From a virus (taxonomy: Duplodnaviria; Heunggongvirae; Uroviricota; Caudoviricetes), in the IMG/VR virus record IMGVR_UViG_2548876858_000016: DNA of 19,882 bases; one strand, 5' to 3'. Numbering within the stretch: the first letter of the stretch is position 1; every line of letters begins with the position of its first letter. Position numbers and translations under genes: made by a program. The notes below the pieces were generated by a model, which was given only the letters and a program-made list of their open reading frames with translations, made no database searches and was not told the DNA's origin. Below, piece by piece: positions 4,948 through 19,882 of this stretch.

Positions 4948-4954
4948 CTTATAT

Positions 4955-4973
4955 GCCCGGCAGGCCGCCGGGC
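4955..4973 (+). other. GC-rich hairpin (GCCCGGC-aggcc-GCCGGGC) between the SPFH gene and the next gene, without a U-tract
   Basis: Perfect 7-bp GC stem with 5-nt loop; no T-run follows, so not a classical intrinsic terminator; possible RNA-stability or processing element. Confidence 0.4.
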
Positions 4974-4987
4974 TAAGGGAAAAGCAG

Positions 4988-5347: not shown

Positions 5348-5378
5348 AGTTCTCACAACTCAGGGAACAGGAGAAAAA

Positions 5379-5621: not shown

Positions 5622-5624
5622 AGA

Positions 5625-5771
5625 ATGAATAAAGCATTTGAACGATGGGTCCACCAGCGTTACGGCAATCGCTATGACCTGACACGAGATGTTGACGGTT
5701 TCTACTGTCGTGAAATTGTGAAACGAATGTTTGAAGTGTGGTGCCACTGCCGTGGGCTGAGTGTTGTGTGA
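5625..5771 (+). CDS. Hypothetical small Cys-containing protein (48 aa), not in ORF track
   Basis: My translation: MNKAFERWVHQRYGNRYDLTRDVDGFYCREIVKRMFEVWCHCRGLSVV, stop TGA at 5769-5771. AGGAAG SD ~8 nt upstream; fills the gap between neighbouring genes in the same orientation. Confidence 0.35.
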   Translation: MNKAFERWVHQRYGNRYDLTRDVDGFYCREIVKRMFEVWCHCRGLSVV

Positions 5772-5779
5772 GGTAATGC

Positions 5780-6016
5780 ATGGGCAATGTGATTCAACTG
5801 GCTCCCAATGAATGGGTTTGTGAAAGCGTTCTAATCGCAATTACCGGGCTCAAACCAGGCACAATTCTTCGGGCCCGGAAAGAATGCTGGATGGTTGGAA
5901 GAGAGTATATTCACGTATCACCAGACGGTAATCCAAAGCCTTCCAGTGAATGTATGTATAACAGAAAAGCAATAGATGCCTGGGTTGCTTCAATGAAAAA
6001 CAAACAACCTGGGTGA
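5780..6016 (+). CDS. Excisionase-like (Xis-type) small DNA-binding protein
   Basis: 78-aa ORF immediately upstream of the integrase; EW...R...W...GREY pattern reminiscent of lambda-type Xis; GAGGT SD. Confidence 0.55.
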   Translation: MGNVIQLAPNEWVCESVLIAITGLKPGTILRARKECWMVGREYIHVSPDGNPKPSSECMYNRKAIDAWVASMKNKQPG

Positions 6017-6071
6017 TTTAATGCCATGAAGTATGTAAGCTCGTATCGCTCTTGGGTGTCTGGAGGTATCA

Positions 6072-7385
6072 ATGGATAAAGTCAAATATCCAACAGGCGT
6101 CGAAAACCACGGTGGCACATTACGCATCTGGTTTAATTTTAAAGGTAAACGTGTCAGGGAAAATCTTGGTGTCCCTGACACTGCCAAGAACAGGAAGATC
6201 GCCGGAGAGCTGCGGACATCTGTATGTTTTGCTATTCGTACAGGAAACTTTGATTACGCTGCGCAGTTCCCTGACTCTCCTAACCTCAAGGCTTTTGGGG
6301 TAAGTAAAAAAGAAATTACGGTGAAGGAACTTGAAGAAAAGTGGCTGGATCTGAAACGAATGGAAATCTCTGCAAATGCATTCAATCGCTATGAATCCGT
6401 TGCAAGAACGATGGTTCCGAAAATTGGAGGCAGCAGACTGGTGTCATCGGTAACTAAAGAGGAATTGCTGTATATCAGGAAAGATTTGCTGACCGGATAT
6501 CAGAATTCAACGAAAAACAAAGCAGCAGCAAAAGGACGGAGCGTCGTTACTGTAAATTATTACATGACGACAATCGCTGGAATGTTTCAGTTTGCTGCAG
6601 ATCACGGTTACCTAGAAGCAAATCCTTTCCAGGGAATTAAGCCTCTTAAAAGAGCCAGGGCAGAGCCAGATCCGCTAACTCGTGACGAATTTATTCGCCT
6701 GATAGATGCTTGCCGACATCAGCAGACGAAAAACCTGTGGTCATTGGCTGTGTACACAGGAATGCGTCACGGTGAACTGGTCTCCCTGGCCTGGGAAGAT
6801 ATCGATCTGAAAGCAGGAACTATTACTATCAGGCGCAATTATACGAAACTCGGTGAGTTCGCTCTACCTAAAACTGAAGCAAGTACAAACAGGGTTGTGC
6901 ATCTTATCCAGCCCGCTATCAGTGTCCTGAAAAATCAGGCTGAAATGACAAGACTGGGTAAGCAGCACCACATCAAGGTTCAACTACGTGAATATGGGCG
7001 TTCAGTGAATCATGAATGTACTTTCGTATTTAACCCCCAGGTGGTTAGAAAAAGCAAACAGGTCGGTTTTATCTACAAGGTAGATTCTATTGGCGACTCA
7101 TGGGAAACAGCCATTAAGCGTGCGGGCATCAGGCACCGGAAAGCATACCAGTCACGACACACTTATGCGTGCTGGTCATTATCTGCCGGAGCAAACCCAA
7201 GCTTCATTGCCAGCCAGATGGGCCATGCAAGTGCCCAGATGGTGTTCAATGTATACGGAGCATGGATGACTGACAGTAATGCAGAACAGATCGCAATGCT
7301 GAATCAGAAGCTGGCAGATTATGTCCCAATGATGTCCCATGGTCACCAAAGTGACACAAGAGACTTATTAAAATCAGTGGGTTAG
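6072..7385 (+). CDS. int: Tyrosine site-specific integrase (phage integrase family)
   Basis: 437-aa ORF; GGAGGT SD; C-terminal catalytic-domain pattern (TGMRHGEL, HxxR-type segment SRHTYA, catalytic Tyr in NVYGAWM); stop lies directly at the junction with the host-gene fragment. Confidence 0.9.
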   Translation: MDKVKYPTGVENHGGTLRIWFNFKGKRVRENLGVPDTAKNRKIAGELRTSVCFAIRTGNFDYAAQFPDSPNLKAFGVSKKEITVKELEEKWLDLKRMEISANAFNRYESVARTMVPKIGGSRLVSSVTKEELLYIRKDLLTGYQNSTKNKAAAKGRSVVTVNYYMTTIAGMFQFAADHGYLEANPFQGIKPLKRARAEPDPLTRDEFIRLIDACRHQQTKNLWSLAVYTGMRHGELVSLAWEDIDLKAGTITIRRNYTKLGEFALPKTEASTNRVVHLIQPAISVLKNQAEMTRLGKQHHIKVQLREYGRSVNHECTFVFNPQVVRKSKQVGFIYKVDSIGDSWETAIKRAGIRHRKAYQSRHTYACWSLSAGANPSFIASQMGHASAQMVFNVYGAWMTDSNAEQIAMLNQKLADYVPMMSHGHQSDTRDLLKSVG

Positions 7386-7399
7386 CCTTCAATACCCGT

Positions 7400-7813
7400 C
7401 ATGTTAACTGTGTGGAGGGTAACACCACGCTTTATGCCCTGCCGAAACCCGAGGTTGTCCTGCGCTGGCGTGAGCAGACCACAGATGACTTCCGCTTCTG
7501 TTTTAAGTTTCCGGCGACTATTTCGCATCAGGCAGCATTACGGCATTGCGATGATTTAGTGACTGAATTTTTGACCCGCATGTCACCGTTGGCTCCGCGC
7601 ATTGGACAATACTGGCTGCAACTGCCTGCCACATTCGGCCCACGGGAGCTGCCTGCGCTTTGGCATTTTCTCGACTCTCTTCCCGGCGAATTTAATTATG
7701 GTGTGGAAGTCCGCCATCCACAGTTTTTCGCCAAAGGGGAAGAGGAACAAACGATTAATCGCGGTTTACATCAGCGCGGCGTTAATCGGGTGATTTTCAT
7801 CAGACACGTTTAA
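7400..7813 (+). pseudogene. yecE: Internal fragment of a DUF72-family host gene (yecE-like), disrupted on both sides
   Basis: Frame encodes ~135 aa (VEGNTTLYALPKPEVVLRWREQTTDDFRFCFKFP...GVEVRHPQFF...) with no plausible start. Assignment to DUF72/yecE is from memory of the family. The fragment sits between the integrase and the serine recombinase. Confidence 0.5.
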
Positions 7814-7914
7814 ATACACCACCTAAAGCGATACAATCTAGGGGTTGGTAGATGATTCGGATGAAGCATCCTCATAACAAGCCCAACTGCTATTAGTTTT
7901 TATGGTGGTAAAGA

Positions 7915-9438
7915 ATGAAACGTGTAATCAGCTACATCAGATTCAGTTCTGAGCGACAAGCCAAAGGCGACTCACTACGCAGACAGTCTAAGATGGTTAA
8001 TGACTGGCTTAAGGCTCATCCTGAGTACTACCTTGACCAAGATTTATCCTTCCGTGATTTGGGGGTGAGTGGGTTCACTGGTAAGCACTTGAAAGGTGGC
8101 TTAGGTGACTTTTTAACCGCTATCGAGAAAGGGCTTGTTAAAGCTGGTGATACGCTCTTGATAGAATCTCTTGACCGTCTGTCACGTCAAGATGTAGACC
8201 AAGCAAGTGAGCTACTCAGAAACATTCTTCGCTCTGGTGTAGATGTGGTCACCTTGTCCGATGGTGAACATTACACACGAGAATCTCTTAAAGACCCGTT
8301 AGCTCTGATTAAAAGCATTCTGATAATGCAGCGGTCGCATGAGGAGAGTTTGAGGAAGTCTGAGCGTATACAAGCTGCATGGAACCGTAAAAAAGAACTC
8401 ATCTCTGAAGGTATCAAGATTTCTAAACGTTGTCCTGCATGGCTTAAGCTTAATGATGACCGTAAAAGCTTCTCTGTAATCCCTGAGAAAGTGGAGACTG
8501 TGAAGAGGTGCTTTCAGCTACGGTTAGAGGGTAAGTCTATCTGGGAGATTGTCAGGACTCTTAATGATGAAGGTCACCAGACGCTTAACCAATATAAAGC
8601 GGGTTCATTTGGTCAAACCTCAGTACAAGACCTTCTGAAAAATCGCTCTGTAATTGGTTACTTCACACCTAAAGGCTGTGAAGAGATAGCTGATTATTAT
8701 CCTGCAATTATAGATGAAACAACATTCTACAAAGTCCAGCAACTATCATATGCTCGTTACGGTAGAAAACCTGCTTCAGATAAGCCAATGGCTGTGAATC
8801 TTTTCAAAGGTGTTATCCGTTGCTCTGAATGTGGTCATGCTCTGATTATCACAGGCTTTAGCGATACAAGAAACGGGATTTATCGCTGTCCCCTTCGTAA
8901 TGAAAACCGTTGTAGTGCTAAAGGGCTGTCACGTAAGCAAACCGATGGTACATTGCTTACCCTGCTATCTCGTCTTGACCGATTTGATAGCGATACGACG
9001 AATACCATCGATACACTGAAGTTACACCGTGAACACATCTCAAGCAATATTGAGAAGCTGGTACAGCTATCACTTGAAATTGAAGATTTGTCAGCTATTA
9101 CCAGCAAGCTAAAACAACTAAAGAATGAGCTATCACAGGTTGATGCGGATATCGAGAAGGAGACACAACGCCTTAAATCTATTGATGTGGGGTGTTTGTC
9201 TGATTGTGACTTGACTACAAAGGCGGGAAGGATTGAAGCACAACTGATAATCAAAAGTGCTGTTAAAGAGGTCGTTTTAAATACTGCTAAACGTCGATGT
9301 AAAGTGACTTTTCACAACGGTAAGGTAATTGACCTACCAATAACAGAAAACCCCTCAGACAACGTTACAGAGGCTATACAGTCGCTTTCTGAAGTCACTG
9401 AGAGGGGTTTAATAGATGTTGATGAGGTTATCATATAG
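7915..9438 (+). CDS. Large serine recombinase (resolvase catalytic domain + recombinase domain + zinc-ribbon)
   Basis: 507-aa ORF; N-terminal YIRFSSERQ with catalytic Ser; Cys cluster CSECGH...YRCPLRNENRC; C-terminal coiled coil. Confidence 0.85.
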   Translation: MKRVISYIRFSSERQAKGDSLRRQSKMVNDWLKAHPEYYLDQDLSFRDLGVSGFTGKHLKGGLGDFLTAIEKGLVKAGDTLLIESLDRLSRQDVDQASELLRNILRSGVDVVTLSDGEHYTRESLKDPLALIKSILIMQRSHEESLRKSERIQAAWNRKKELISEGIKISKRCPAWLKLNDDRKSFSVIPEKVETVKRCFQLRLEGKSIWEIVRTLNDEGHQTLNQYKAGSFGQTSVQDLLKNRSVIGYFTPKGCEEIADYYPAIIDETTFYKVQQLSYARYGRKPASDKPMAVNLFKGVIRCSECGHALIITGFSDTRNGIYRCPLRNENRCSAKGLSRKQTDGTLLTLLSRLDRFDSDTTNTIDTLKLHREHISSNIEKLVQLSLEIEDLSAITSKLKQLKNELSQVDADIEKETQRLKSIDVGCLSDCDLTTKAGRIEAQLIIKSAVKEVVLNTAKRRCKVTFHNGKVIDLPITENPSDNVTEAIQSLSEVTERGLIDVDEVII

Positions 9439-9452
9439 TTGAGATTCTATCG

Positions 9453-10226
9453 TCAGTAGCGCTTATTCGGATTCACCGAAAACTTCTTCAAAGTACTACC
9501 TGTACCAGCATTATTAAGCACCTTTGAAGCTTGCTCATTAGCGGCATCTGAGAAGGTGCTTTTTCCGTTCTTAACTCTGACATTCCTACCACAATTGATA
9601 CGGGCTTGAAGTTGCTCATTAGAAAGTTCACTCGTAGAGCGATTATATAGCTCCTGACACATCAACATACCGTTACCTAAGCTTGTCGTAGTGTTCCCTG
9701 TATTCTTTTTGCTGGTAGCACCACCATCATTTGTAGTAGCTGTCTTTCCAGTAGCAGCCGAAATATCAGTTTGACCCACAATAGCTTTAAAGTTAATTTC
9801 CTGAAAAGTTAGCTGGATTCTTAGACCATTTGAAATACCAACATCTTTAGAGGCTTTAAAGCTTGTAATAATGGAGTCATCAATTTTAATACCATCTTTA
9901 CAGATGACCGAAATAATCTGCTTCTGGTCACGCCAGTTTTCAAGAGTGTCGATGAAGTTCTCCACCAGCTTATTATCTCTTGAGATAAGGATACTACCGG
10001 ATTCACCAACCACAACCACACCACTGATTGAAATAGTTCTTGGTGAACGCATTACATTATCTGTTACAGTCTGCCCTGATTGCATATTTTGAGTGGTCAC
10101 CATCATAGGGCTGTCATATTCCATCTGTTCAGTTGCTGATAAGGTTAAGAAATTATCTGGCTGTCCTTGTAGATGGAAGTAAACACCATCTTTACCAGTG
10201 TAACGAAGCTGACTAGTGTAAATCAT
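9453..10226 (-). CDS. Hypothetical protein (257 aa); possible tail component by position downstream of the tape-measure-like gene
   Basis: Track ORF; GGAGA SD 5 nt upstream of ATG; convergent with the recombinase gene. No domain recognised. Confidence 0.55.
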
Positions 10227-10309
10227 TAAATTCTCCTTTGATTTCAGAGACTTAGTGTATTTTAATCATTTTTAACCAAGCCTTTGATATATAAGTGTTT
10301 TCTCTGTTA

Positions 10310-10376
10310 AGCGTGAGCTACGTAAAAAATAATTTTTGGTGGGTATATCTGTTCAGAAGATTTCACGTAGCACACG
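10310..10376. promoter_or_regulatory. Copy A of a duplicated intergenic regulatory element (AAGCGTG..TACGTAAA..GTGGGTAT..CAGA..TTTC..ACGTAGCACAC)
   Basis: Shares ordered conserved blocks with 12501-12594; arms CGTGAGCTACGT / ACGTAGCACACG form an 11/12 inverted repeat; lies upstream of gene 9453-10226. Confidence 0.5.
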
Positions 10377-10389
10377 GATATATAAGAAA

Positions 10390-12480
10390 TCATTCTTCCT
10401 CTGGATAGCTTGAACTTAAGAGCATATCCTGCGTGAACTGGTCATTAGCTGATTGATTGAAAGTAAAGAAAGCTGGTTCATCCGGTCTAACAATTGCTTC
10501 ACCAGTGATATTAACTGACAAGGGCTTCTTAGCTTCTACTGTTAAAGCATCAACCTTGCGTGATAGCTCACTAATAGTCATTGCAAGTTGAGCATTACTA
10601 TTAACCATGTCACCCGTAATAGCTGGTGGAGTTGATTGTGTGTTATTTACGAAGTTATTCATCGGTTCTTGGGAGTTAGCAATTTTATCAGCTGCACTAC
10701 TAAACCAACCTTTAACATCGTCCATAGTGAACACTGGTTTAAGTCCAGACTCTTTAGCTAGCTCTGGTAATTTAGCTTGTGCTTCCATTCGTTCAGGTGT
10801 AGAAGCTAATCTTTCATAACCTGCATAGATAGCACTACCAGCTAATAGCATATTCATAGGGTTTAGTCTTGATGGTTTCCCATTCTTTCTATTCACGTTA
10901 TCCGCTGTGGTATCAGCGACCTGACCTAATCTTGTGATAGCAGTCATAAGCCCGTAAATACTTCTGGTTACACCAACAACTTTATTCACAGCAATAACAC
11001 CAGCCAAGACTTTTAAACTATTAATCAAGCCAGAACCTAAAGCATCAACTACTTTCTTTTGCTCATCGGTTAAACCACGATAAGCTAATGTCACCTCATC
11101 GAAGAATGCTCTTACCCTGTAGCTGATATCAGTCAATGAATCGACACCATGCGACATATCGCTCATCAAGCTACCAAGAGATTCACCAAGACTTTTACCA
11201 CTTCCACCAAGAGCGTTTAAAAGCGTTGTTAGGCTTCTTGTGAAATCTTGAAGACCATTTTCAGAACCTCTGAAGATACTATCAAGCGTGGTATTCCAAG
11301 AGTTTTTCAAGTTCCCTAGTTGTGCCTGTGTACTTTCTGAAATGGCTTTCCAGCCACCTTTAGCGGTGATTTGTCTATTCAGTTCCTGAGTGACCTTCTG
11401 AAGAGTATCGGCAGATTTTAAAGCCCCCTTCTTCATGGCATCAAATAATTCCTGTTCACTCTTTCCGGTTGCTTTAGCGAATACCTGAACCATACCAGGA
11501 ACAGCTTCAGCCAGTTGCCCCTTAAGCTCTTCAGCCATAATCTGACCCTTACCAGCCATCTGTGATAATGCTGTCAGTGCTCGCTTAATCTCTTCTTCAC
11601 TTCTCCCCATCAGACGAGCATAGCCAATCATATTTTTAAAAAGTTCTTCAGAACCTTGAATACCCATAGACTCTTTAGCTGAAGCACCAAAACCAGCAAA
11701 CTGTGATTGCAGTTCAGCGATATCTAAACCCGTTGTTTGAGCTAATGACTTTGTGAACTCTTTTACCTGACCTGCATCTTTATCAAATACGAAATCAATT
11801 GAACGCTCAGCACTTGCACGCTGTAAACCAATTTCCATAATCTTCTGATAACTGGCTAATACAGCCTGCATTGAGATAAATGCACCTGCTGTTTTAACTG
11901 CTGCTGAAGACAGGTTATCAAGACTATTAGCTGCTCTGTCAGCATTAATGCTGGTGGATGTATGACCTCTGGCTTTAGCAATTGCTTCTCTGACTGAAGC
12001 GTTTAACTGAGCTAACTTCTCATTGAATTTTGAAGAATCCATTGACCCGGCTTTAGCAGATAGCCCGTAAAACTGAGATTTGATGTATTTCTGCAAAATA
12101 GGGTCAAAGCCTTTTAGCTTAGACATATTAGCTGAGTAAGCCGCTGTGATTGCTCTGTTGCCGCTAATTAGTGGCTGTCTTGGCTGTCTAAGTGGCTTTA
12201 AAGTATCCTCAATTTCCGTTTTAATCTTAAACGCTCTAGTGTTTTTAAGACGCTGCTCAATCTTGTCAAAGGTCTTATTAAACTTCCTTTCAAGTTGCCC
12301 TAAAGAACTTGTCAGATTGCTGTCAAGTTGCTTGGTATCGACCTTAAACGCTCTATTCAAATTGCGTTCAATTCTTTGTGCTGACTGCAAAGCTGCCTTT
12401 TCAACTCTTTGCAGTCCCTTAATAACGTTTTCATTGAAGCCTAGCTCAACGATAAAACTATCAACTGTGAATTTGCTCAT
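10390..12480 (-). CDS. Phage tail tape-measure-like protein
   Basis: 696-aa ORF; central region (GSEELFKNMIGYARLMGRSEEEIKRALTALSQMAGKGQIMAEELKGQLAEAVPGMVQVFAKATGKSEQELFDAMKKG) matches the tape-measure core pattern; coiled-coil N-terminus; GAGGTG SD. Confidence 0.7.
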   Translation of the reverse strand: MSKFTVDSFIVELGFNENVIKGLQRVEKAALQSAQRIERNLNRAFKVDTKQLDSNLTSSLGQLERKFNKTFDKIEQRLKNTRAFKIKTEIEDTLKPLRQPRQPLISGNRAITAAYSANMSKLKGFDPILQKYIKSQFYGLSAKAGSMDSSKFNEKLAQLNASVREAIAKARGHTSTSINADRAANSLDNLSSAAVKTAGAFISMQAVLASYQKIMEIGLQRASAERSIDFVFDKDAGQVKEFTKSLAQTTGLDIAELQSQFAGFGASAKESMGIQGSEELFKNMIGYARLMGRSEEEIKRALTALSQMAGKGQIMAEELKGQLAEAVPGMVQVFAKATGKSEQELFDAMKKGALKSADTLQKVTQELNRQITAKGGWKAISESTQAQLGNLKNSWNTTLDSIFRGSENGLQDFTRSLTTLLNALGGSGKSLGESLGSLMSDMSHGVDSLTDISYRVRAFFDEVTLAYRGLTDEQKKVVDALGSGLINSLKVLAGVIAVNKVVGVTRSIYGLMTAITRLGQVADTTADNVNRKNGKPSRLNPMNMLLAGSAIYAGYERLASTPERMEAQAKLPELAKESGLKPVFTMDDVKGWFSSAADKIANSQEPMNNFVNNTQSTPPAITGDMVNSNAQLAMTISELSRKVDALTVEAKKPLSVNITGEAIVRPDEPAFFTFNQSANDQFTQDMLLSSSYPEEE

Positions 12481-12500
12481 TCATATTTTTCACCTCTTTA

Positions 12501-12594
12501 AGCGTGTTGTACGTAAATTCTATTTTTCAGTGTGGGTATTAGCTTTACAGATTTCATGAGGATAATTCTTATCCGAATCATCACGTAGCACACA
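12501..12594. promoter_or_regulatory. Copy B of the duplicated intergenic regulatory element, upstream of the tape-measure-like gene
   Basis: Same conserved blocks as 10310-10376 with a ~27-bp insertion; contains CACGTAGCACACAGGAT (12582-12598). Confidence 0.5.
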
Positions 12595-12622
12595 GGATTC
12601 GATAGAAGACTATCTCATATAC

Positions 12623-12663
12623 AAAAAAGGGAGAGCTACCGATGTCACTCGATAATCTCTCCC
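12623..12663 (-). terminator. Candidate intrinsic terminator on the minus strand (GGGAGAG / CTCTCCC stem, 21-nt loop, U6)
   Basis: 7-bp GC-rich stem at 12629-12635 / 12657-12663; on the minus-strand transcript it is followed by UUUUUU (plus-strand A6 at 12623-12628). Loop is long for a terminator. Confidence 0.4.
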
Positions 12664-12688
12664 GTTGATTTTTACCCAACCAATCTTT

Positions 12689-12892
12689 TTACCTAACCAG
12701 ATAATAATTACCATCTTCACCGACAATCTGACAATCACTTGGTAATTTATCAAGACACCATTTAGCGATTCTTCTGATTCTATTCTTTTGCTTAGAGGTG
12801 GATGATTTGATTCGTTTTGGTTTGTTGGGTTGTTCTTTCAATCGTTCACTAATTGCTTTAATAAGCTCATAGCGTTCTGTTAAATCAATCAT
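12689..12892 (-). CDS. Hypothetical small basic protein (67 aa)
   Basis: Track ORF; strong AGGAGGTG SD; Lys/Arg-rich centre (KPKRIKSSTSKQKNRIRRIAK). Confidence 0.5.
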   Translation of the reverse strand: MIDLTERYELIKAISERLKEQPNKPKRIKSSTSKQKNRIRRIAKWCLDKLPSDCQIVGEDGNYYLVR

Positions 12893-12916
12893 TCACCACC
12901 TCCTTTTAATTCATAG

Positions 12917-13657
12917 TTAAAGTGCCTTTGCATATTTCTGAGAAATCTTCACTAACTGCTCAATATCAGCCTGCATAGCAATTTTCTTCTGTGATTCATA
13001 TTCACTAACAAGCTCTTTCATAGTATCAAGCTCTTTTTTAAGCTTTTGCTTTAACTTATCCAGCTTATCGGAGTAATGCTTAGTCAGATTAGCTTCAGCT
13101 AACTGAAGAATCTCTTCATCTGTTTTGTTAGTCATCAGGATATATGAGCCTGTACCACGTGAAGCTTGTCTGACATCCATTAATCGAAAACCGTCAGGAA
13201 TACTTTGAAGCACTTTTGGAACATTCTCTCTTGCTGTACCGAAACCATTGTTGTAATTTCCTTCGTAATAGATAAACGGGTTTGTCTTAAGCTCATATTC
13301 AATATCATATTCTGAAGGTTTCTGAGTTTCTTCGAAGTTTTTGACAACATCATAAGCATTATCAAGCTTGATGCGCTGCTCTTTTAGTAGTGGATAGTAC
13401 TTCCTCTCAAGTGCAATCAGAGCTTCTGTCTTGCAAACATCAGTCATTTCCAGAGGCTCAGGATTGATATATTCAAGATTATTGGCTGGAACAATCTTTC
13501 GCAGCCTTTCTTTTTTGGCCTCTTCATCTGCAAGCTTGGCAATAATTTTGTGATAAGGTTTCATATGTGCATACTCATCTCCTTCATCAGTAAAATGCAA
13601 ATCATATGCACAAGGTTTTCTATCAACAATCGCTTCATGTTCATCACGGATAGACAT
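12917..13657 (-). CDS. Hypothetical protein (246 aa), charged with coiled-coil C-terminus
   Basis: Track ORF; GAGGAAAA SD ~9 nt upstream. Confidence 0.55.
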   Translation of the reverse strand: MSIRDEHEAIVDRKPCAYDLHFTDEGDEYAHMKPYHKIIAKLADEEAKKERLRKIVPANNLEYINPEPLEMTDVCKTEALIALERKYYPLLKEQRIKLDNAYDVVKNFEETQKPSEYDIEYELKTNPFIYYEGNYNNGFGTARENVPKVLQSIPDGFRLMDVRQASRGTGSYILMTNKTDEEILQLAEANLTKHYSDKLDKLKQKLKKELDTMKELVSEYESQKKIAMQADIEQLVKISQKYAKAL

Positions 13658-13692
13658 TATTATTTTTCCTCTTCTAAGATAATTTATGTTTC

Positions 13693-13774
13693 AGTTTTTA
13701 AAAAGCACACCTGACAGCCTACGAACTTAGAAGAGACTTAAAAGGCGGTTTGCCAAGTGCGCTTTTTAAAAGCT
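13693..13774. repeat. 18-bp inverted repeat (AGTTTTTAAAAAGCACAC ... GTGCGCTTTTTAAAAGCT, 16/18) with ~47-bp spacer
   Basis: Seen directly in the sequence, inside a 470-bp ORF-free gap between minus-strand genes. Confidence 0.6.
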
Positions 13775-14130
13775 GAAAAAGCCCTAGATAACTAAAACGC
13801 TATAAAGGGCTAAGGTGAAGAAATTAAAGAACATCCAAAGGATTCAATAACGAATGAACAAAGACTTTTTGAGATAGCCTATCTAGTGTGGGCTAAATAG
13901 GCCATGACGAAAAGCATTGCACCTTTCCAACTCAGAATAACTATCATTGATGTAGAATGATTAATAGTTTAATTCAGGAAGAGTTGCTCTCCCCTATTAC
14001 CATCATCTCATGCTTAAGGTTATTTGTCAACAGCTTTTAACAGATTGATAACATCAATTCTTATTTACTGTGTTACCCACCCAGCAACCAACAAATAAGC
14101 CAAGCAACGTCCAAGCAATTATTAAGCCCA

Positions 14131-14454
14131 TTAGTGAACCCTCACGGAATCCGTAACCAAAATATTATCGCTGTACAGGATTGTCACAGCACCTTTCAAA
14201 AATCGCTCTGGGGAAATACTGTATTTGTTCGTTTGCTCAATAACCAATCTTTTCATATTACTGTCTGTAATTGGTAACATCATTCGAGGCTCGTTAAACT
14301 CCACCGAGTGAATAAAGTCAGAGATGCTTTCCGCATTATCAGCCATTAACTCTAACAACTTATCAAAGTCAATGCTAACACCTACATCAGTGAAAGCCTG
14401 AATCATCATGGCGGTGTCGGTATCAATAAAAATCTGTAGTGGGAAATTATTCAT
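14131..14454 (-). CDS. Hypothetical protein (107 aa)
   Basis: Internal Met of track ORF 14131..14565 (MNNFPLQIFIDTDTAMM...), with AGGA SD 9 nt upstream. Confidence 0.5.
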   Translation of the reverse strand: MNNFPLQIFIDTDTAMMIQAFTDVGVSIDFDKLLELMADNAESISDFIHSVEFNEPRMMLPITDSNMKRLVIEQTNKYSISPERFLKGAVTILYSDNILVTDSVRVH

Positions 14455-14592
14455 TTTTAAAATCCTATAAAAACACATCTTAAATCTGCCAAAATAGCCA
14501 TTCTGAGGCCAGTAACCATGCGGGTTACAGAGGGAGTGAGACACCTTAGTAATAGGGTAGCTCATCTTTGAGTCTCACTCATTCTCACAGAC

Positions 14593-14979
14593 TTACACAG
14601 ACGCTTTAATCTTGTAGTATTGACTACGTGATAAGCCGTATTTCTCAGAAATATAACTTTGTGATTGTCCTTTGGTGATTGCATCAATGATTAAATCTTT
14701 ATCGTATCTGTTACCGTTGGCTTTGTGCTTGTCACTATTTTTAATAGAGTTGAAGTTCTCCATTAATTCAATGGCGTCTTTAAGGTCGCTTTCGTAAGCA
14801 TAATCAAAACCTCTGATAAACTCGAAATCACCATTATCTTTTTGTGCTTCAGCCCAGATATCAAATCTTGAGGCTAATTGCTGGTGGGTAAACTTGGGCT
14901 TATTGGTTTGTGTTACGTCTTTCCAGACCTTACCGTCAAATCTTACCAAATGGTCACGATGCTTATAAAAATCATACAT
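14593..14979 (-). CDS. Hypothetical protein with C-terminal HTH (128 aa)
   Basis: Track ORF; GGAGG SD; C-terminal ITKGQSQSYISEKYGLSRSQYYKIK resembles a resolvase/Hin-type or small-terminase-type HTH. Start overlaps the upstream stop (TAATG). Confidence 0.55.
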   Translation of the reverse strand: MYDFYKHRDHLVRFDGKVWKDVTQTNKPKFTHQQLASRFDIWAEAQKDNGDFEFIRGFDYAYESDLKDAIELMENFNSIKNSDKHKANGNRYDKDLIIDAITKGQSQSYISEKYGLSRSQYYKIKASV

Positions 14980-15257
14980 TAAACCTCCATTGCTAATTTG
15001 TGAATTTTGATACTTAGTAATCTTGCTAAATCCAGTCCAAAGGCATTTAGAGCCTTCAGACTATCAAGGTCATCTTGCTTAATCCTGATATGGTGTCTTG
15101 CTGCCTCTAAACGACTATTAAGCAAATCCTGCTCGTTAATATCACGGTTAATTGCAAGCTTCATCACTGCTGAGTGTGGCAGACCTGTAATGTTTTTGAT
15201 TCGGTTAAGTTCGTCAAAGGCTGTCTTTGTAACTCTGGTTAAAGTGTGCTTAGTCAT
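14979..15257 (-). CDS. Hypothetical protein (92 aa)
   Basis: Track ORF; tightly packed between neighbours in one minus-strand operon. Confidence 0.5.
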   Translation of the reverse strand: MTKHTLTRVTKTAFDELNRIKNITGLPHSAVMKLAINRDINEQDLLNSRLEAARHHIRIKQDDLDSLKALNAFGLDLARLLSIKIHKLAMEV

Positions 15258-15260
15258 TAT

Positions 15261-15824
15261 TTAAAATCCTTCTGCTTGTGCGTACACGTCAAATTCAAAG
15301 TCTGGCTCACTGCTTGTAAGACTGATATTACCAACGGTAATATGATGCTCGACAATACCAATTAACTTTGCGCACATCACAGCAAGTAATGCGCAATAGG
15401 CATCGCTTGGTAACTCATGGCTTAACCTGGTTGCCTGACGCTGGAGATGGTTTGTCACGGTAGCTGAGTTAATTTCATCAAGATTCTTTAGAAGATAAAA
15501 CAATTTCTTGTTGTATTTTGGGTGCCCCTCACTTCTGCAAAATCCGATAAGAATGTCGTCAAGCTTGCTCGGTAATTGCTCGTAGCTGTCAAAGTTAGCC
15601 AGATAATTCTTGATGCTGTTCTTTGTTGTTTTGCGTACTGACATATAACGACTCCTCGGTGTAATTGCCCGAATTACTTCGTCAATGCCTTTGCGTTCTG
15701 CTCTGGTGAACTTGGGTGCTTCGTGGCTGGTGGGGGAGTTTGTGTAGCTGTAGGAGTTGTAGGAGTTGTATCTGTTACGTTGTCTCGATGCCTGAAGCAT
15801 CGCTCTAAATTCTCTGTCGTTCAT
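15261..15824 (-). CDS. Hypothetical protein (187 aa) with in-frame 9-bp tandem repeat
   Basis: Track ORF; AAGGA SD 11 nt upstream; GTAGGAGTT x2.3 at 15750-15770 encodes NSYNSYSY. Confidence 0.55.
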   Translation of the reverse strand: MNDREFRAMLQASRQRNRYNSYNSYSYTNSPTSHEAPKFTRAERKGIDEVIRAITPRSRYMSVRKTTKNSIKNYLANFDSYEQLPSKLDDILIGFCRSEGHPKYNKKLFYLLKNLDEINSATVTNHLQRQATRLSHELPSDAYCALLAVMCAKLIGIVEHHITVGNISLTSSEPDFEFDVYAQAEGF

Positions 15825-15910
15825 TCATAAGCTAGTCCTTATAATTGTTAATTCTCTGTTAACTTATATAGACAATACTAGCATTTTCAAAGACTAATGT
15901 CAAGCATTTT

Positions 15911-15940
15911 TTAACATTTCATTAACATCTGTGGTATAAT
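15911..15940 (+). promoter_or_regulatory. Candidate sigma70 promoter with extended -10 (TTAACA-18-TGgTATAAT)
   Basis: TATAAT at 15935-15940 preceded by TG at 15932-15933; TTAACA at 15911-15916. Confidence 0.5.
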
Positions 15941-16122
15941 GGTTCTATGGGGAGAGTAAAATATAAAGGCGTGGCTATGAGAGTGGTCATATGGTTATTG
16001 CATTGCACACAGACCTCTTCAATCGCTCTGTAACGAGTTAAATGGCCTCTTCAGGTCAACATATAAGGTCAGGTACTTTTTTGTGTCAGAATGCGATTGA
16101 GAGCGTCTTACAAGGAAAACTA

Positions 16123-16299
16123 ATGGTAAATCTCCCTCCTGAGCTGGGGTCACCTGATGTATGGGCTGGTGGAGGTGTTGGGCTGATTGCAGGTCTGCTA
16201 CTTCGCTACGTCCTCGTCAGAGTGCTTGTTGTCTTTAAACTGTTCGGTCGTACATGGACGCTTGACCTTAAGGATAACGACCACACAGAACCCCGTTAA
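16123..16299 (+). CDS. Candidate small single-TM protein (58 aa)
   Basis: Internal ATG of track ORF 16042..16299, with AAGGA SD 6 nt upstream; hydrophobic segment VGLIAGLLLRYVLVRVLVVF; downstream of the 15911-15940 promoter. Confidence 0.35.
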   Translation: MVNLPPELGSPDVWAGGGVGLIAGLLLRYVLVRVLVVFKLFGRTWTLDLKDNDHTEPR

Positions 16300-16340
16300 A
16301 CTCCCTTCAAAACCCCCTGTACGTGATGGTATAGGGGTAT

Positions 16341-16357
16341 CTTTAGCATTTTGTGCT
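16341..16357. promoter_or_regulatory. Copy 1 of 17-bp dyad motif CTTTAGCAWWWWGTGCT
   Basis: CTTTAGCATTTTGTGCT; internal dyad AGCA-N5-TGCT; same motif recurs at 17471-17487 and inverted at 17501-17517. Confidence 0.45.
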
Positions 16358-16525
16358 ATCTATTAATAAATAGCTTGACATAACCGGAAAACTGAATCTA
16401 TCAAGTATTCACCCCTCTGACAGTAATTTCTAAAAATGCTTATTTTTCAATGAGTTGTAATTAGCCAATATAAAGGACTGACAAGACTCTTCACAGAGAA
16501 CTTTCAAGACTCACTAAGACACAAG

Positions 16526-16562
16526 GCGATAACCCCAGACAGGGAGAGCCTCCTTCTTAACC
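16526..16562. repeat. Direct repeat copy A (GCGATAACCCCAGACAGGG...TCTTAAC)
   Basis: ~75% identical to 16696-16732; contains a CCCC-N5-GGG mini-hairpin. Confidence 0.5.
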
Positions 16563-16695
16563 GACTTCTTAAACAATCTTTACAGACCCCCGTTCACCAG
16601 TCTCAATATTTTTATTTCTCGCTCTTCGTTTTTTGCTCGTTTCTATTATTGAGGGGGTTTGAAAAACCTCTGTAAAATAACCCTTCCAGTAAAAA

Positions 16696-16732
16696 GCGAA
16701 TAACCCCAGAAAGGGGAAATCGCATCTTTAAC
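16696..16732. repeat. Direct repeat copy B (GCGAATAACCCCAGAAAGGGG...TCTTTAAC)
   Basis: Pairs with 16526-16562; contains the perfect hairpin CCCCagaaaGGGG. Confidence 0.5.
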
Positions 16733-16763
16733 ATTCTCGTAATCAGTGCTCTATATGAGAACT

Positions 16764-17432
16764 TCAGCCCAACCTTTGAACAATCCTGTAAGTGGTGCTT
16801 AGAGGTATTCTTAGCGATTCTGCGATGCTCTTGATGGGTTGCCCTTGGTCATACATTTTAATCAACCTGTCAAGCGTCTGTGCATCGTGCATATGAGGTC
16901 TTCCACGTAAACCACCCCTGTTAACCACGGCAAGTAAAAGCATTGTGTCACCACAATAGATTGTCTGGGTAACTTCAACTTTCGGTTTGCGGGGTGTGTT
17001 CCTGTATATCAAAACGCAACTTGGAAACGGTGAGCGCACTACAACACCTCTCTTTCCTGCTGGTGGAAGGTATTTGACTGCTCGGTGTAACGTTCGAATC
17101 TCATGCAGGAAGGGGTTTGTATATACACACCGAAGCCAGTAAGTTGTCTTTGACCTGAGCGGAACCAGACATACACACACATCAGCTTCAGGGGCTTTTA
17201 AGAGGAACTTTTCAGCCATGCTAAACGGCGGGTTAACGAAGACCCGTTCACCAACCCATGATTGATTGTGAATATCATCGGTGAACCGTGGCAACAATGC
17301 GTCATACTCAGTTGCAGCACCATCTAGACTGAAGTTAAACTCACGATGCAGGTTATGAAATAAACGATACGGTGTACGCCAGTCATCAGAACCACCATGA
17401 TAACGACCAACATTGATTATTGGATGCGACAC
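16764..17432 (-). CDS. Phage Dam-family N6-adenine DNA methyltransferase fused to a C-terminal resolvase/Hin-type HTH
   Basis: 222-aa ORF with GTG start (AGAGGGG SD ~10 nt upstream). N-terminal ~150 aa shows DDWRTP...F.F.LDGAA...NPPFS...SPFPS, which I recognise as the phage Dam MTase pattern; C-terminal GRPHMHDAQTLDRLIKMYDQGQPIKSIAESLRIPLSTTYRIVQRLG resembles a serine-recombinase HTH. Confidence 0.7.
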   Translation of the reverse strand: MSHPIINVGRYHGGSDDWRTPYRLFHNLHREFNFSLDGAATEYDALLPRFTDDIHNQSWVGERVFVNPPFSMAEKFLLKAPEADVCVCLVPLRSKTTYWLRCVYTNPFLHEIRTLHRAVKYLPPAGKRGVVVRSPFPSCVLIYRNTPRKPKVEVTQTIYCGDTMLLLAVVNRGGLRGRPHMHDAQTLDRLIKMYDQGQPIKSIAESLRIPLSTTYRIVQRLG

Positions 17433-17470
17433 AAGCGAAGCGCCCCTCTTAGTATATTTCTTAATCGTCT

Positions 17471-17517
17471 CTTTAGCATTTAGTGCTTTTTGTTAAGTTT
17501 AGCACTTTTTGCTAAAG
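17471..17517. promoter_or_regulatory. Inverted pair of the 17-bp dyad motif, upstream of the Dam-HTH gene; candidate operator
   Basis: CTTTAGCATTTAGTGCT (17471-17487) and reverse complement of CTTTAGCAAAAAGTGCT (17501-17517), 13-bp spacer; 40-85 bp upstream of the GTG start; a minus-strand TATACT -10 candidate lies at 17451-17456. Confidence 0.45.
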
Positions 17518-17944
17518 ACAAAAGCATTGACAAAATGGTAGGATTGTTCACATAGCCCTTACTTAACAGACTCTTAAGAGCTTTGAAACAGCCTGTTTAA
17601 CAAGGTCACTACCTCTGGTCTTATCGTTCCCTTCTTTCTAGGTAGTCATCTGTTAAGAACTTTTCAGTTTTATTCTTAAGATAATTGTTAAGATGATACT
17701 CTCCCTTCGGGTTATATCGTATCTCTCCTCCCGTTAAATATCCCTTCACAGTCAGACTAAATAACACCTGTGTAGTTTCTTGGTAGAATCTTTCAAGGTA
17801 ACTTAACTCTGAGTTTATGAAGTTGACCTATGAGATAGACTCTACCGAATCTGTTAGTCAATTGTTGCTTAGGTGCTGCTAAGGCTTACTTAGTGGGAAG
17901 AGAGGGAATATGTGACCATAGGAACCCCTCCTGTTAAAAGCTTC

Positions 17945-17972
17945 TTGACGTTACTATCTCGATATGTATAAT
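17945..17972 (+). promoter_or_regulatory. Near-consensus sigma70 promoter (TTGACG-16-TATAAT)
   Basis: TTGACG at 17945-17950, 16-bp spacer, TATAAT at 17967-17972; no credible ORF downstream. Confidence 0.5.
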
Positions 17973-17979
17973 GGCTTAC

Positions 17980-18148
17980 TGTACTAGGTTTACTTCCAAA
18001 GCAACCAAGCACACTCTCTATGGCAGTGTCCAGCGAGGTAAGGTCGTGTAGGGTGCGGTTCGGTGGGGTAAGGTTTGGTGCGGTATGGGTGGATTGTCGT
18101 AGCCACGTTAAAAATCGACTTATAGGGACTCTTTCGGGAGTCCTTTTT
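17980..18148 (+). ncRNA. Candidate ~170-nt small RNA bounded by promoter and intrinsic terminator; G-rich internal tandem repeat
   Basis: Starts ~7 nt after the -10 and ends at the 18125-18148 terminator; contains GGTAAGGT...GGTGCGGT twice (18046-18095); the only overlapping ORF (18020-18298) reads through the terminator and looks non-coding. Confidence 0.4.
18125..18148 (+). terminator. Rho-independent terminator (GGACTC-tttcgg-GAGTCC + T5)
   Basis: 6-bp stem at 18126-18131 / 18138-18143, T-run 18144-18148; plus-strand specific. Confidence 0.6.
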
Positions 18149-18298
18149 AGTTTGTATAAAATCTGTACAGTAACTTTTCAGAGTCTGAAAATTTTTATAA
18201 ATATCGTAGTAACCCCTCTACATTCCCCTTCACCGATAATTTTCAAAAATATCTACACTCAATTGATGGCTGTTAAGTACCCCAGATTCACGATATAG

Positions 18299-18308
18299 CC
18301 CCCCCCCC
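18299..18308. repeat. Homopolymeric C10 tract
   Basis: Ten consecutive C in intergenic DNA, immediately upstream of a promoter-like TTGCAA-16-TATAAC (18310-18337). Confidence 0.9.
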
Positions 18309-19048
18309 TTTGCAAAAGCAGTTAAAATATCTATAACCAACCATTGACTTTCTTCATGATATCTGTTTAGCCCCACCTCAATAAGCCATCATCACACATC
18401 AAAGCATCTATCAAGAAGGTTTAACCTATCAATAGCTGTAACATTTTATAGTTCTGTGAAGTCCTATCCAGTTTTCTCTGTAACAGCTACAAACTTCTGT
18501 GACCTTATGTGTCAATGACTTATAAGACATGCTCTCAAGGTGCTGTATAGCCTCTTATCAGCCAATACACAAAACCCTTATAAATCAGTACTGATATGTA
18601 TACAGTATGTTTTTAACATAATAGCTGTTTTACGCACTAATAAGCACCTACGTAGATTCTGTATAGAGATTAAGATGTCTCTAAGTGATTTTTTAAGAGG
18701 AGATACGAAGGAACTATAACCATCACTTCATAACTTTCACGTAGGTAACTATTAAGTAGGTTGATAGTCACTTTGAGGGAATATTGATAGTGACCAACTG
18801 CATAGACACCGTTATATAGCCCTGTATATAGCACTATATGTAGTGTCTGGAGAGGGACGACTAACACGATATAGTTTACCCTGAAAAGAGGATTTACAGA
18901 TTCTCTATACATTTCAATAAGTTATGATAAAAAGGGGCTATGTCGATACTGTATAGAATCTGTGTAGGATTGCATAGATACTTGGAAAAATACCGTTAAA
19001 TTGCATAGGTACTAACCTGTTTATGTCCTGTTATTTACAGGCATAGCA

Positions 19049-19882
19049 TTATTGGTTAATTAATTCATCCGACTCTATATCATTACCTTTTTCTTTTTCC
19101 TTTTTAATTTTAGCCTCTACCATATCGAACATTTTCATTGTCTGTGATGAAGTTAGCTCTTTCTTTTGTCGTAGCGCGTTACGTATGGTAGAAGCTTCAA
19201 TATCAGAAACTGTTAAAAGTTCTTCTACCCTACTCTTCAATTGCTGTAATGAACGGCTATTATCAACTTTAAAGAAATCATCCATTACCTCAAGTGAGGC
19301 AACAATCAAATCCTGTAGTCTCTCTTTTTCTATCTCGATATTTTCAATGGTTTGTTTTTCTTTAGATACTAACTGCTTTAAATTATTAATTTCTTTCTGA
19401 ATCAGTTTCTTCTCTGTCTGTAGCTCTTCTGTGACCAGCTCTTCACGCTTACCACGCTCTACTTCCGCTTTAATATCAGCATCAATTTTAGCATTTTCTT
19501 TCTCTTCTTCTCTGGCAGCCCGAACCTTTAACCCCGTTAACCTGATTGAATCCAAGTATTCTTTTTCCTTTGTAAGATAAACATTTTCATTGTGTTTATC
19601 TGTAGCCCATTTTTGAGCAAGAGAAAGTAACCATTGAGCATAAGGAGTAATAACAGCTAGCACACCTCCAAAAAAGACAGGAGCAAGCAGATAATGAGCG
19701 TAAAAATATTCCTGAGATAGTATATAATCTATTCGAAACTTAACAGGCGCATCACTCATAAAGAGCATTGCTAAGTTAGGCCAGTTGAACCATACCCATG
19801 CAAGAATGATATATCCCCATAATGGGCTTTTAATCCTATCGTTTATTGCTTGCATAGTAGAATCTAACCACCCATCACTCAT
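19049..19882 (-). CDS. Membrane-anchored coiled-coil protein (two N-terminal TM segments + long K/E-rich coiled coil); start at or beyond window edge
   Basis: Track ORF; hydrophobic segments LWGYIILAWVWFNWPNLAMLF and YLLAPVFFGGVLAVITPYAQWLL, then heptad-like K/E-rich sequence. The Met at 19880-19882 is the last codon in the window, so the true start may lie outside. Confidence 0.55.
   Translation of the reverse strand: MSDGWLDSTMQAINDRIKSPLWGYIILAWVWFNWPNLAMLFMSDAPVKFRIDYILSQEYFYAHYLLAPVFFGGVLAVITPYAQWLLSLAQKWATDKHNENVYLTKEKEYLDSIRLTGLKVRAAREEEKENAKIDADIKAEVERGKREELVTEELQTEKKLIQKEINNLKQLVSKEKQTIENIEIEKERLQDLIVASLEVMDDFFKVDNSRSLQQLKSRVEELLTVSDIEASTIRNALRQKKELTSSQTMKMFDMVEAKIKKEKEKGNDIESDELINQ

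Follow-up and report, generated by a model that had tools for sequence, protein, structure and literature searches.

A conserved gene-free module with homology to the terminal region of Felix O1-like phages in a possible satellite element of Escherichia coli

The virus record IMGVR_UViG_2548876858_000016 (all 19,882 nucleotides of which are called the window below) is Escherichia coli chromosome, and from position 7915 onward it consists of a ~12-kb element inserted in yecE. A sequence-only reading of the window had flagged positions 18480-19040 as a cluster of dispersed short motifs in both orientations, lying in DNA without credible open reading frames (ORFs), and had suggested iterated binding sites such as replication-origin iterons or a multi-operator control region. 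The cluster forms the right two-thirds of a conserved ORF-free module of ~890 bp, which we call block C (18153-19044). Four ties connect the element to Felix O1-like phages (Felixounavirus): a Dit-like protein, homology of two segments of the non-coding region (C-left, in block C, and module A, upstream of it), an 11.25-bp phasing of short sites, and the absence of GATC. On the homology across the boundary of the phage direct terminal repeat (DTR), taken together with the other ties to these phages, we read block C as a cis-acting module resembling a helper terminus and the element as a satellite, or hitch-hiker, of virulent Felix O1-like phages, a reading whose chances we judge to be about even. 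We hold more tentatively the fuller proposal that the element belongs to an undescribed, widespread satellite family of E. coli, Citrobacter and E. albertii that parasitises virulent Felix O1-like phages, and that block C mimics the DTR region of the helper, its ~11.25-bp array of CTNTNNAG-type 8-mers nucleating a terminus-binding or terminase complex. We infer dependence on a helper, protein binding by the array, and a function of block C that is most likely packaging and possibly replication.

Homology to the terminal region of Felix O1-like phages

A 608-bp DTR has been determined experimentally for UAB_Phi87, the sister of phage UAB_69 (PMC4837284), and short terminal repeats have been inferred for Felix O1 (PMC3185647). 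The record of UAB_Phi87 does not start at the physical end, so we placed the DTR by the annotation of the UAB_69 record, where it lies inside a gene-free region of ~2 kb. Transcription units from both sides converge on the Felix gene-free region (phage records; PMC3185647), which favours a role at the level of DNA over a promoter role.

This phage region was first pointed to by a weak match between C-right, the last ~230 nt of block C (18810-19041), and Felix-like Salmonella phages, whose gene-free region carries similar short repeats. Megablast and ordinary blastn searches of phage records with the non-coding region or with block C returned no match. The homology of C-left (18158-18345, + strand), which corresponds to Felix O1-like sequence spanning the left boundary of the DTR, was revealed only by the more Felix-like copy in a related element (L010; loci are cited by our own numbers) and by profile searches. 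An nhmmer profile of block C matches UAB_69, BPS17W1 and allfine at E-values of 3.6e-11, 2.9e-10 and 4.7e-8, the matching part being profile positions 19-223 (window ~18158-18345). In the reverse direction, a profile built from six Felix regions finds the C-left of elements at E-values of 1.3e-14 to 4.6e-9 and that of the window at 0.0056. A BLAST search with the L010 C-left against 50,697 phage records (2.3 Gb) matched 73 of them, with E-values down to 8e-9. All 25 records listed are Felixounavirus-type phages of Salmonella and Escherichia (22-89 kb), and by organism name the 73 are apparently all Felixounavirus, except for one, outside those 25, that is labelled Staphylococcus.

A second homologous segment lies upstream, in module A (17506-17747): positions 17579-17639 (+ strand) are homologous to the interior of the Felix DTR and have CTTATCGTTCCCTT in common with it. 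Against the Felix profile, module A scores E-values of 2.4e-6 for the window, 9.2e-8 for L003 and 8e-7 for L006, and the pairwise match to the phage is 74% identical (E 3e-8). In profile coordinates the DTR occupies ~661-1256, C-left aligns to 544-805 and so straddles its left boundary, and module A falls inside it. Window positions 18266-18283 (+ strand) align to the left boundary in UAB_69, with GATGGCTGT before and TAAGTACCC after a junction that falls between 18273 and 18274. We predict 18273/18274 to be the terminus-equivalent site, where, judging from the alignment, cleavage might occur. A weak colinear match starts exactly at the right boundary of the DTR (profile 1257-1412, window 18739-18904). 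Block C looks like a shortened terminal region composed of a left flank, the start of the DTR, a satellite-specific interior and a right flank, the last two of which are not established by sequence similarity.

Short words are also held in common. The Felix ORF-free region is enriched 65-fold in TATAGAG, 27-fold in YTRTATAG and 22-fold in CTTAACA, and the same three words are enriched 7.5- to 14-fold in the non-coding region of the window. The phage DTR has four copies of TATAGAG on each side in opposed orientations, those on the left being on the - strand and those on the right on the + strand.

The 29-nt sequence AGTTGATTCGGTAGAATCTACCTCATGAT is identical in L005, L006 and phage BPS17W1 at the homologous position, differs at two positions in L007, and is missing from UAB_69 and the other elements; this patchy identity suggests recent exchange between elements and phage. 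AGTTGATTCGGTAGAATCTACCTCATGAT has the form of a hairpin-like cassette of ~24-29 nt, present or absent just left of the DTR boundary in elements and Felix-like phages alike (L005 ~4660-4690, L006 and L007; BPS17W1, our L098, ~300-340), and a related inverted copy lies at window 7840-7896. Similar GATTCGG..CCGAATC cassettes occur at other module borders, and L008 and L049 have, inverted at their right ends, the 57-nt stretch that separates attL from the integrase gene in the window.

Anatomy, conservation and phasing of block C

The gene-free stretch is larger than the sequence-only reading had it, extending over 1.6 kb (17433-19048), and no coding sequence is annotated under it in any RefSeq genome fetched. 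The one ORF called within the cluster, 18670-18912, had been taken for spurious, and frameshifting indels break it in three of eight relatives. Pairwise and multiple alignment divide the region into module A, module B (17748-18150), which is variable among elements and in the window holds a strong promoter and a terminator, and block C. Identity among E. coli elements is 78-94% for block C and 68-91% for the adjacent Dam-family methyltransferase gene, which is often the less conserved of the two; 64% of the columns of block C are invariant in nine sequences. The middle of block C, C-mid (18400-18720), is a nearly invariant core with CTATCAAG, CTGTAACA, CTCTCAAG, CTGTATAG and similar 8-mers, and in three relatives (L002, L011 and L012) about 18332-18712 is swapped for a small resolvase cassette. 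C-right is the universal core of the family, found in every member: 12 of 12 E. coli loci, Citrobacter, E. albertii, another Escherichia species and ~70 metagenome contigs. About 20 nt separate its end from the recombinase-specific attP/attR half-site, except where a cargo gene intervenes, as in the window, and CCTGTTTATGTCCTGTTATTTACAGG (19017-19041, + strand) is the last conserved piece before that arm or gene. The region as a whole is mosaic, with haplotype blocks that reassort freely.

Phasing was measured by Fourier analysis of the positions of CT, with dinucleotide shuffles as background. The CT-initiated 8-mers of block C peak at a period of 11.25 bp over 890 nt (z=8.6; reached in 0 of 1000 and 0 of 400 shuffles), with a power of 0.76 against 0.20 +/- 0.07 in the shuffles (0/1000). 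Forty-one of the 60 CT sites fall in one phase, and the in-phase 8-mers include CTGTACAG, CTATCAAG, CTGTGAAG, CTGTAACA, CTCTCAAG, CTGTATAG, CTTATCAG, CTCTATAC and CTGTGTAG. The flagged stretch by itself peaks at 11.6 bp (z=4.4; 1/400 shuffles). The same 11.25-bp peak is found in block C of the relative L007 (z=7.4; 0/400) and in the DTR of UAB_69 (z=6.7; 0/400), and whole Felix ORF-free regions give z of 5-6.4. The interior of the phage DTR is a run of CTTAACAG, CTAACAAG, CTCTCAAG and CTTTATAG units ~11 bp apart. The gene-free region of BPS17W1 also accounts for the majority of the strongest ~11-bp windows in its 87.6-kb genome, among them the five highest-ranking ones on the CT strand.

Coding controls in the window (tape measure protein (TMP) gene, 10500-11400; recombinase gene) showed no significant CT periodicity in a first test. 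In sliding-window scans, parts of the TMP gene (window 11100-13000, - strand) match or exceed the ~11-nt power of block C, presumably from repeats in the protein, and among 760 windows as long as block C, block C itself comes about 9th. The example of the TMP gene cautions against relying on periodicity as a marker by itself.

A period slightly above the helical repeat that stays coherent over hundreds of base pairs is what is expected of cooperative protein binding or wrapping. Conservation at the level of DNA, with no covariation, no Rfam match and no conserved promoter, fits the binding or wrapping of DNA by protein, and the sites of block C are probably iterated protein-binding sites, to judge from their arrangement. 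The general part of the sequence-only reading, iterated binding sites, stands up in this form: the array is iterated and phased, conserved as DNA and free of RNA covariation. The specific models it offered, origin iterons and operators, fit poorly and are taken up below.

All the motif copies named in that reading are present, several of them displaced by 1-3 nt. Its reference copy, AGATTCTGTATAGA, lies where it was placed (18654-18667, + strand) and has 8 of 14 columns invariant. AGATTCTCTATACA lies at 18898-18911 (given as 18897-18910), and CTGTATAGAATCT at 18949-18961 on the + strand (given as 18952-18964), its reverse complement being the inverted copy. Of the two shorter cores, CTGTATAG (18543-18550, + strand; given as 18542-18549) is invariant in all nine aligned elements, and CTGTATATAG (18822-18831, + strand; given as 18821-18832) is invariant in 10 of 10 columns. 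The enrichment that the reading presupposed is significant against dinucleotide shuffles. With up to three mismatches, AGATTCTGTATAGA has 10 matches in the window, nine of them inside 17839-18968, against 2.81 +/- 1.65 in shuffles, none of 200 of which reached 10; with up to one mismatch, CTGTATAG has 30 against 14.0 +/- 3.8 (0/200). Inside 18153-19044 there are five copies of CTGTATA (0.31 expected) and eight of TGTATA (1.65 expected), neither count being reached in 300 shuffles.

C-right holds a conserved inverted repeat with arms at 18896-18909 and 18952-18963. The left arm lies in ACAGATTCTCTATACA (18896-18911, + strand) and the right arm in ATACTGTATAGAATCTGTGTA (18946-18966, + strand), the most conserved 21-mer of the family, which with two free positions is matched exactly in all 12 E. 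coli loci found independently by BLAST. A run of sites begins within this 21-mer, at 18949, 18960, 18970 and 19001 (spacings of 11, 10 and 31 bp). The 21-mer served as the pattern for scanning further genomes and metagenome contigs, from which the chance matches L014, L037, L042, L051, L071 and L096 were removed. The 21-mer and the inverted repeat may be bound by a protein encoded by the element.

Other features of the gene-free region were noted in passing. A poly-C tract of 10 C at 18299-18308, ~25 nt inside the predicted DTR-like unit, varies from C5 to C10 among relatives and may be prone to slippage. Module B of the window has a near-consensus sigma-70 promoter (17945-17972, + strand; TTGACG-16-TATAAT, 11 of 12 matches) and a clean intrinsic terminator (18124-18145), which bracket a unit of ~170 nt with the G-rich repeats GGTAAGGT, GGGTGCGGT and GGGGTAAGGT. 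The unit is a candidate small RNA; it has no Rfam match, a fold z-score of -2.1 and a presence limited to a subset of elements. In many elements module B carries a homing-endonuclease gene of the HNH_3-AP2 type (L003 12508-13032, + strand), annotated as an 'AP2/ERF family transcription factor'. The resolvase genes in the middle of block C (L002 12844-13395 and L012 11137-11688, both - strand; L011 11252-11821, + strand) encode 183-189 aa with Resolvase and HTH_7 domains and represent at least two cassettes in opposite orientations, with no trace in the window. A tblastn search of 17400-19100 with the resolvase, HNH-AP2 and cargo proteins of relatives found no decayed remnant of these genes, and a tRNA scan found nothing. 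A possible LexA (SOS) box, TACTGATATGTATACAGTA at 18589-18607, was rejected: it has CTG-N9-CAG where N10 is needed, and relatives keep the N9 spacing.

The element, its distribution and its proposed helper

The elements of this family have a recurring layout: a large serine recombinase gene on the + strand is followed on the - strand by a Dit-like 'baseplate' gene, the TMP gene, several small unknown genes and often a Dam-family methyltransferase gene, after which come a gene-free region of 1.5-2.5 kb and sometimes one cargo gene before attR. In the window the recombinase (7915-9438, + strand) lies at the left end of the element, which in the excised circle would be just downstream of C-right and attP. 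The 5' fragment of yecE is at 7412-7813 and attR lies just beyond the window. From attL and attR (window 7800-7830 with L005 5480-5510) we reconstructed the attP core GTGTATTTAAATACAC, a perfect 16-bp palindrome, as expected for the site of a large serine recombinase. The family has at least four integration sites, which lie within yecE and mdtG, beside ymdF and in the tonB-yciI interval; one P' arm serves both the yecE and the mdtG insertions.

Two structural genes point to the same phages as the non-coding region. The Dit-like protein (9453-10226, - strand; Pfam Dit_like) is 71.8% identical to gp89 of BPS17W1, the product of the gene immediately downstream of the Felix TMP gene (tblastn E 6e-121). 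The TMP (10390-12480, - strand) is 29% identical over its full length to that of Felixounavirus, which provides its best phage relatives, and the gene order is conserved. The HNH-AP2 endonuclease of relatives is 42% identical to an HNH endonuclease of BPS17W1. Searches of Pfam, PHROGs and NCBIfam found no capsid or terminase family in the element, several of whose proteins have no assigned function; for the small proteins, NCBIfam, PHROGs, Pfam and PADLOC gave only weak helix-turn-helix (HTH) hits and an 'orphan methyltransferase'. In its make-up the element resembles a satellite: it is small (~11-12 kb) and integrative, has its own integrase and att sites, is without detected capsid or terminase genes, and shares components and terminal-region sequence with one phage group, its putative helper.

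GATC, which was examined in the window, in elements L001-L003, in 64 family loci and in the Felix-like phage loci L098-L106, is absent from both element and phage. The 12-kb element (window 7830-19882) has none against ~48 expected, and the 87.6-kb genome of BPS17W1 has none against ~297 expected. The 64 family loci, 358 kb in all, contain 11 GATC sites, seven of them in L011, which carries insertion sequences elsewhere in the element; adjacent host and prophage DNA has 2.8-4.4 per kb. The element, itself without GATC, nevertheless encodes a Dam-family methyltransferase (16764-17432, - strand), with an HTH_7 domain of the resolvase type at its C-terminus. Strain ECE228 has a 99.5%-identical element in which this gene is annotated as two ORFs, which suggests a frameshift.

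Of 5426 complete E. coli genomes, at least 515 (roughly 9%) contain a match to the non-coding region, and the family is also present in Citrobacter, E. albertii, another Escherichia species and ~70 metagenome contigs. Block C is common to sub-families with different candidate initiator modules and different recombinases. One such module may be represented in the window by 15825-16763, a second largely gene-free block in which the only ORF is one of 58-85 aa on the + strand. It is present only in elements with a 187-aa protein (15261-15824), and gene and block are together replaced by a 308-324-aa HTH_36 protein, a possible replication initiator, in the sub-family of L008-L010 and L012; the block may be a swappable replication module. 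Windows that overlap it (15976-16917) have a CT periodicity of ~11.5 bp comparable to that of block C, and the block alone has a marginal one (z=2.2; 15 of 400 shuffles reach its power).

Several loci bear more than one element. Directly upstream of the yecE fragment, window 1-7400 is a second prophage-like element with a cI-like repressor (872-1564) and a tyrosine integrase (6072-7385), and the yecD-yecE locus is here occupied by two unrelated elements side by side. The metagenome contig OOBX01000469.1 (L066/L085) carries two different family members in tandem, the second of which has a recombinase only 35% identical and starts ~200 nt after the C-right of the first. L031 and L049 are rearranged tandems in which a recombinase gene that has lost its 5' end is joined to C-right and to what remains of a yecE attR.

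In the mechanism that we envisage, the excised or replicating element would present its phased array after infection by a Felix-like phage, and a terminus-recognising protein, for which the small terminase of the helper or another end-binding factor is a candidate, would bind the array cooperatively along one face of slightly under-twisted DNA. An element protein on the satellite-specific core of C-right might assist this binding. The DNA of the element would then be processed and packaged, and perhaps replicated, by the machinery of the helper.

Alternative readings and comparison with known systems

Several points weigh against the reading of block C as a helper-terminus-like module. The position of the DTR boundary in the alignment rests on the annotation of one record, UAB_69, and 'terminus-like' is a positional description, not a demonstrated packaging signal. 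The stretch 18480-19040 has no significant similarity to Felix phages, and its best result in a search of the phage database was one 34-nt match at E=10. The match at the right boundary is weak (E 0.3-2 per sequence), though it recurs in four elements, and the position of module A breaks the order found in the phage. Neither the invariant 21-mer ATACTGYATAGAATCTGTGTA nor the inverted repeat (18896-18909/18952-18963) has a Felix counterpart, and YTGYRTAG, a word of the satellite type, shows no enrichment in the Felix region (0.51 against 0.44 per kb). Within block C, the columns of the named motifs are not significantly better conserved than the rest (mean identity 0.928 against 0.903; 140 of 891 circular shifts reach this difference), because the named copies belong to a larger and denser degenerate array of which they are the clearest members, not isolated conserved islands. 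We found no circular or virion-derived contigs of the element and no terminal overlaps, the IMG/VR matches being prophage calls. Finally, a 12-kb genome is no obvious fit to an 87-kb head, and no capsid-remodelling gene was recognised in the element, which calls for an explanation such as concatemers or remodelling genes that escaped recognition.

We consider it unlikely that block C is instead a replication origin, with the 8-mers acting as iterons for an initiator of the element or of its helper that would fire replication after excision. Its short phased repeats and AT-rich composition (35-40% GC) would suit an origin, as would its place at a divergence of transcription in the excised circle, between the Dam operon and int. 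Relatives encode the HTH_36 protein, whose domain is common in replication initiators, and the Felix ORF-free region could hold the phage origin, which is not located in PMC3185647. Against this, 17433-19048 contains no DnaA box (TTWTNCACA; three in the window against 2.96 expected), no discrete cluster of AT-rich 13-mers was seen, and GC skew, which the sequence-only reading had proposed as a check, has no inflection at the region. The 8-mers are degenerate and occur in both orientations, unlike direct iterons of 17-22 bp, and the longest repeat families have two or three copies at 70-77% identity. Block C does not co-vary with an initiator: it is kept at 78-85% identity when the 187-aa gene and 15825-16763 are exchanged for the HTH_36 gene, and 15825-16763, which co-varies with the 187-aa gene, is the better origin candidate. 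The independence of block C from both initiator module and recombinase argues against iterons for the element's own Rep protein and against att accessory sites. A search of plasmid records gave no match, which argues against an origin from an oriT or plasmid ori.

A multi-operator control region, in which an HTH regulator of the element would govern the leftward operon and, across attP in the circle, the recombinase gene, strikes us as quite unlikely. Near-palindromic sites of the form TCTRTAYAGA, such as TCAGTACTGA at 18587-18596, and the conserved inverted repeat could be operators, the element encodes proteins with C-terminal HTH domains (HTH_28, weakly, and HTH_7), and in the circular form attP and int directly follow C-right. 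The fit is nevertheless poor. A promoter scan, confined to sigma-70, found 11 sites against 9.1 expected, none of them conserved in block C; the nearest leftward gene starts at least 720 bp from block C; and the Dam-HTH_7 protein, one of the two HTH proteins (14593-14979 and 16764-17432) that the sequence-only reading had named for binding assays, is absent from L002, L003 and L007, all of which retain block C. A coherent 11.25-bp phase over 890 bp is also far longer than known operator clusters.

A structured or antisense RNA, comparable to the CI RNA of P4 or the c4 immunity RNA of P1, in which inverted copies would pair within one transcript, is very unlikely in our view. By eye, the arms 18647-18666 and 18949-18968 pair at 20 of 20 positions on the + strand (16 Watson-Crick and four G-U), the + strand consensus of C-right folds at -13.2 kcal/mol (z=-4.7 against column shuffles), and 18720-19044 has a fold z of -3.3. 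The covariance term of the consensus fold is +0.57, however, which gives no compensatory support, and variants in the arms are uncompensated. The arm 18647-18666 is absent from the elements with a resolvase cassette, Rfam gives no match at the gathering threshold or at E<=5, no promoter and terminator bracket block C, and the homologous Felix region lies at the ends of converging transcription units.

Accessory or resolution sites for a serine recombinase, either res-like for a small resolvase or architectural for the large recombinase near attP, are highly improbable: a resolvase cassette does lie in C-mid of L002, L011 and L012 and C-right does abut the attP half-site, but the window and most relatives have neither a small resolvase nor its remnant. 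C-right is moreover unchanged across four att specificities (yecE, mdtG, ymdF and yciI arms) and beside a recombinase only 35% identical, from which we conclude that it is not an att accessory site. Large serine recombinases need only att sites of ~50 bp. Least credible is the view that the region is an artefact of AT-rich composition or a relic without function, left by recombination with a Felix-like phage. The mosaic structure and the unexceptional conservation of the motif columns would allow this view, but it sits badly with the 64% of invariant columns beside a Dam gene 68-91% identical, with the retention of the block in other genera and at least 515 genomes of E. coli, and with an enrichment and phasing that both exceed dinucleotide shuffles.

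If block C is indeed a helper-terminus-like module, it would be the first described packaging mimic for a helper of the DTR type, and the element and its phage would be a satellite-helper pair in E. coli for a virulent group with wide use in diagnostics and therapy. Salmonella typing and phage therapy both employ Felix O1-like phages, and carriage of the island by about 1 in 10 complete E. coli genomes could alter phage efficacy and gene transfer. Packaging by exact terminal repeats is far less understood than cos or headful packaging. That satellites have kept the sequence of the DTR boundary and the phased array would mark these as the functional core of the Felix 2-kb gene-free region, and the 18273/18274 boundary, the 11.25-bp phase and the invariant 21-mer at 18946-18966 would together define a cis element for exact-DTR packaging. 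The common lack of GATC would suggest a GATC-directed activity in Felix-type infection that phage and parasite must both escape. Should the reading be wrong, block C still stands as a non-coding module with clear limits and strong conservation in an abundant E. coli island. A literature search of incomplete coverage found no description of this element family or of a satellite of Felix O1-like phages.

Of known systems, the terminal region of the Felix O1-like phages themselves (~610-bp DTR; UAB_Phi87, UAB_69, BPS17W1 and Felix O1) is related in sequence, being homologous to C-left and module A. Both have the 11.25-bp phasing of CT-initiated 8-mers and the words CTTAACA, YTRTATAG, TATAGAG and TATAGCC, and both are gene-free, flanked by terminators and without GATC. 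The satellite block differs in being about half the size, with an interior and right part that are not detectably homologous. Its dominant 8-mer is CTGTATAG/TGCATAG whereas that of the phage is CTTAACAG, the symmetric TATAGAG arrays that flank the phage DTR are cut to two or three copies, and module A, which resembles the DTR interior, is displaced upstream.

Carriage of helper-type packaging sites by small elements without capsid or terminase genes is familiar: the cos site of P4 matches that of P2, and phage-inducible chromosomal islands (PICIs), among them the Staphylococcus aureus pathogenicity islands (SaPIs), carry helper-type cos or pac sites. The element described here is like them in carrying DNA that resembles a helper terminus. 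It differs in that their sites are the cos or headful pac sites of temperate helpers, while its putative helper is a virulent myovirus with exact DTRs, and in that they have a short site where it has a phased array of ~0.9 kb. Marker genes of the P4-like, PICI, capsid-forming PICI (cfPICI) and PICI-like element (PLE) families were not found in the element with Pfam, PHROGs or NCBIfam. PLE, which exploits ICP1, and the phage-inducible chromosomal minimalist islands (PICMI) of Vibrio resemble it as small islands that exploit a virulent helper with few genes and have large repeat-bearing non-coding stretches, but the present element belongs to Enterobacteriaceae and another helper lineage, and has a large serine recombinase and helper-type TMP and Dit-like genes. 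PICMI are reported to lack capsid-remodelling genes and to be packaged as concatemers (PMC10803314).

The terminal repeat of T5 is similar by description, as a large gene-free, repeat-rich cis region at the DTR of a virulent coliphage; a preprint presents its untranslated repeat region as an injection stop signal in two-step DNA injection (bioRxiv 10.1101/866236). Nothing indicates control of injection for block C. As for the build of the array, the 11-bp iterons of R1 parC are bound by ParR, and p6 of phi29 forms a nucleoprotein complex at the genome ends; sites spaced a little more than one helical turn apart allow DNA to be wrapped or coated by protein across hundreds of base pairs. Block C is like both in having short degenerate sites at such a spacing, an analogy limited to architecture; no homologous protein was identified in the element. 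Set beside these systems, block C is best classed as a cis-acting helper mimic of a satellite, a known kind, here with a putative virulent helper of the DTR type and an 11.25-bp phased build.

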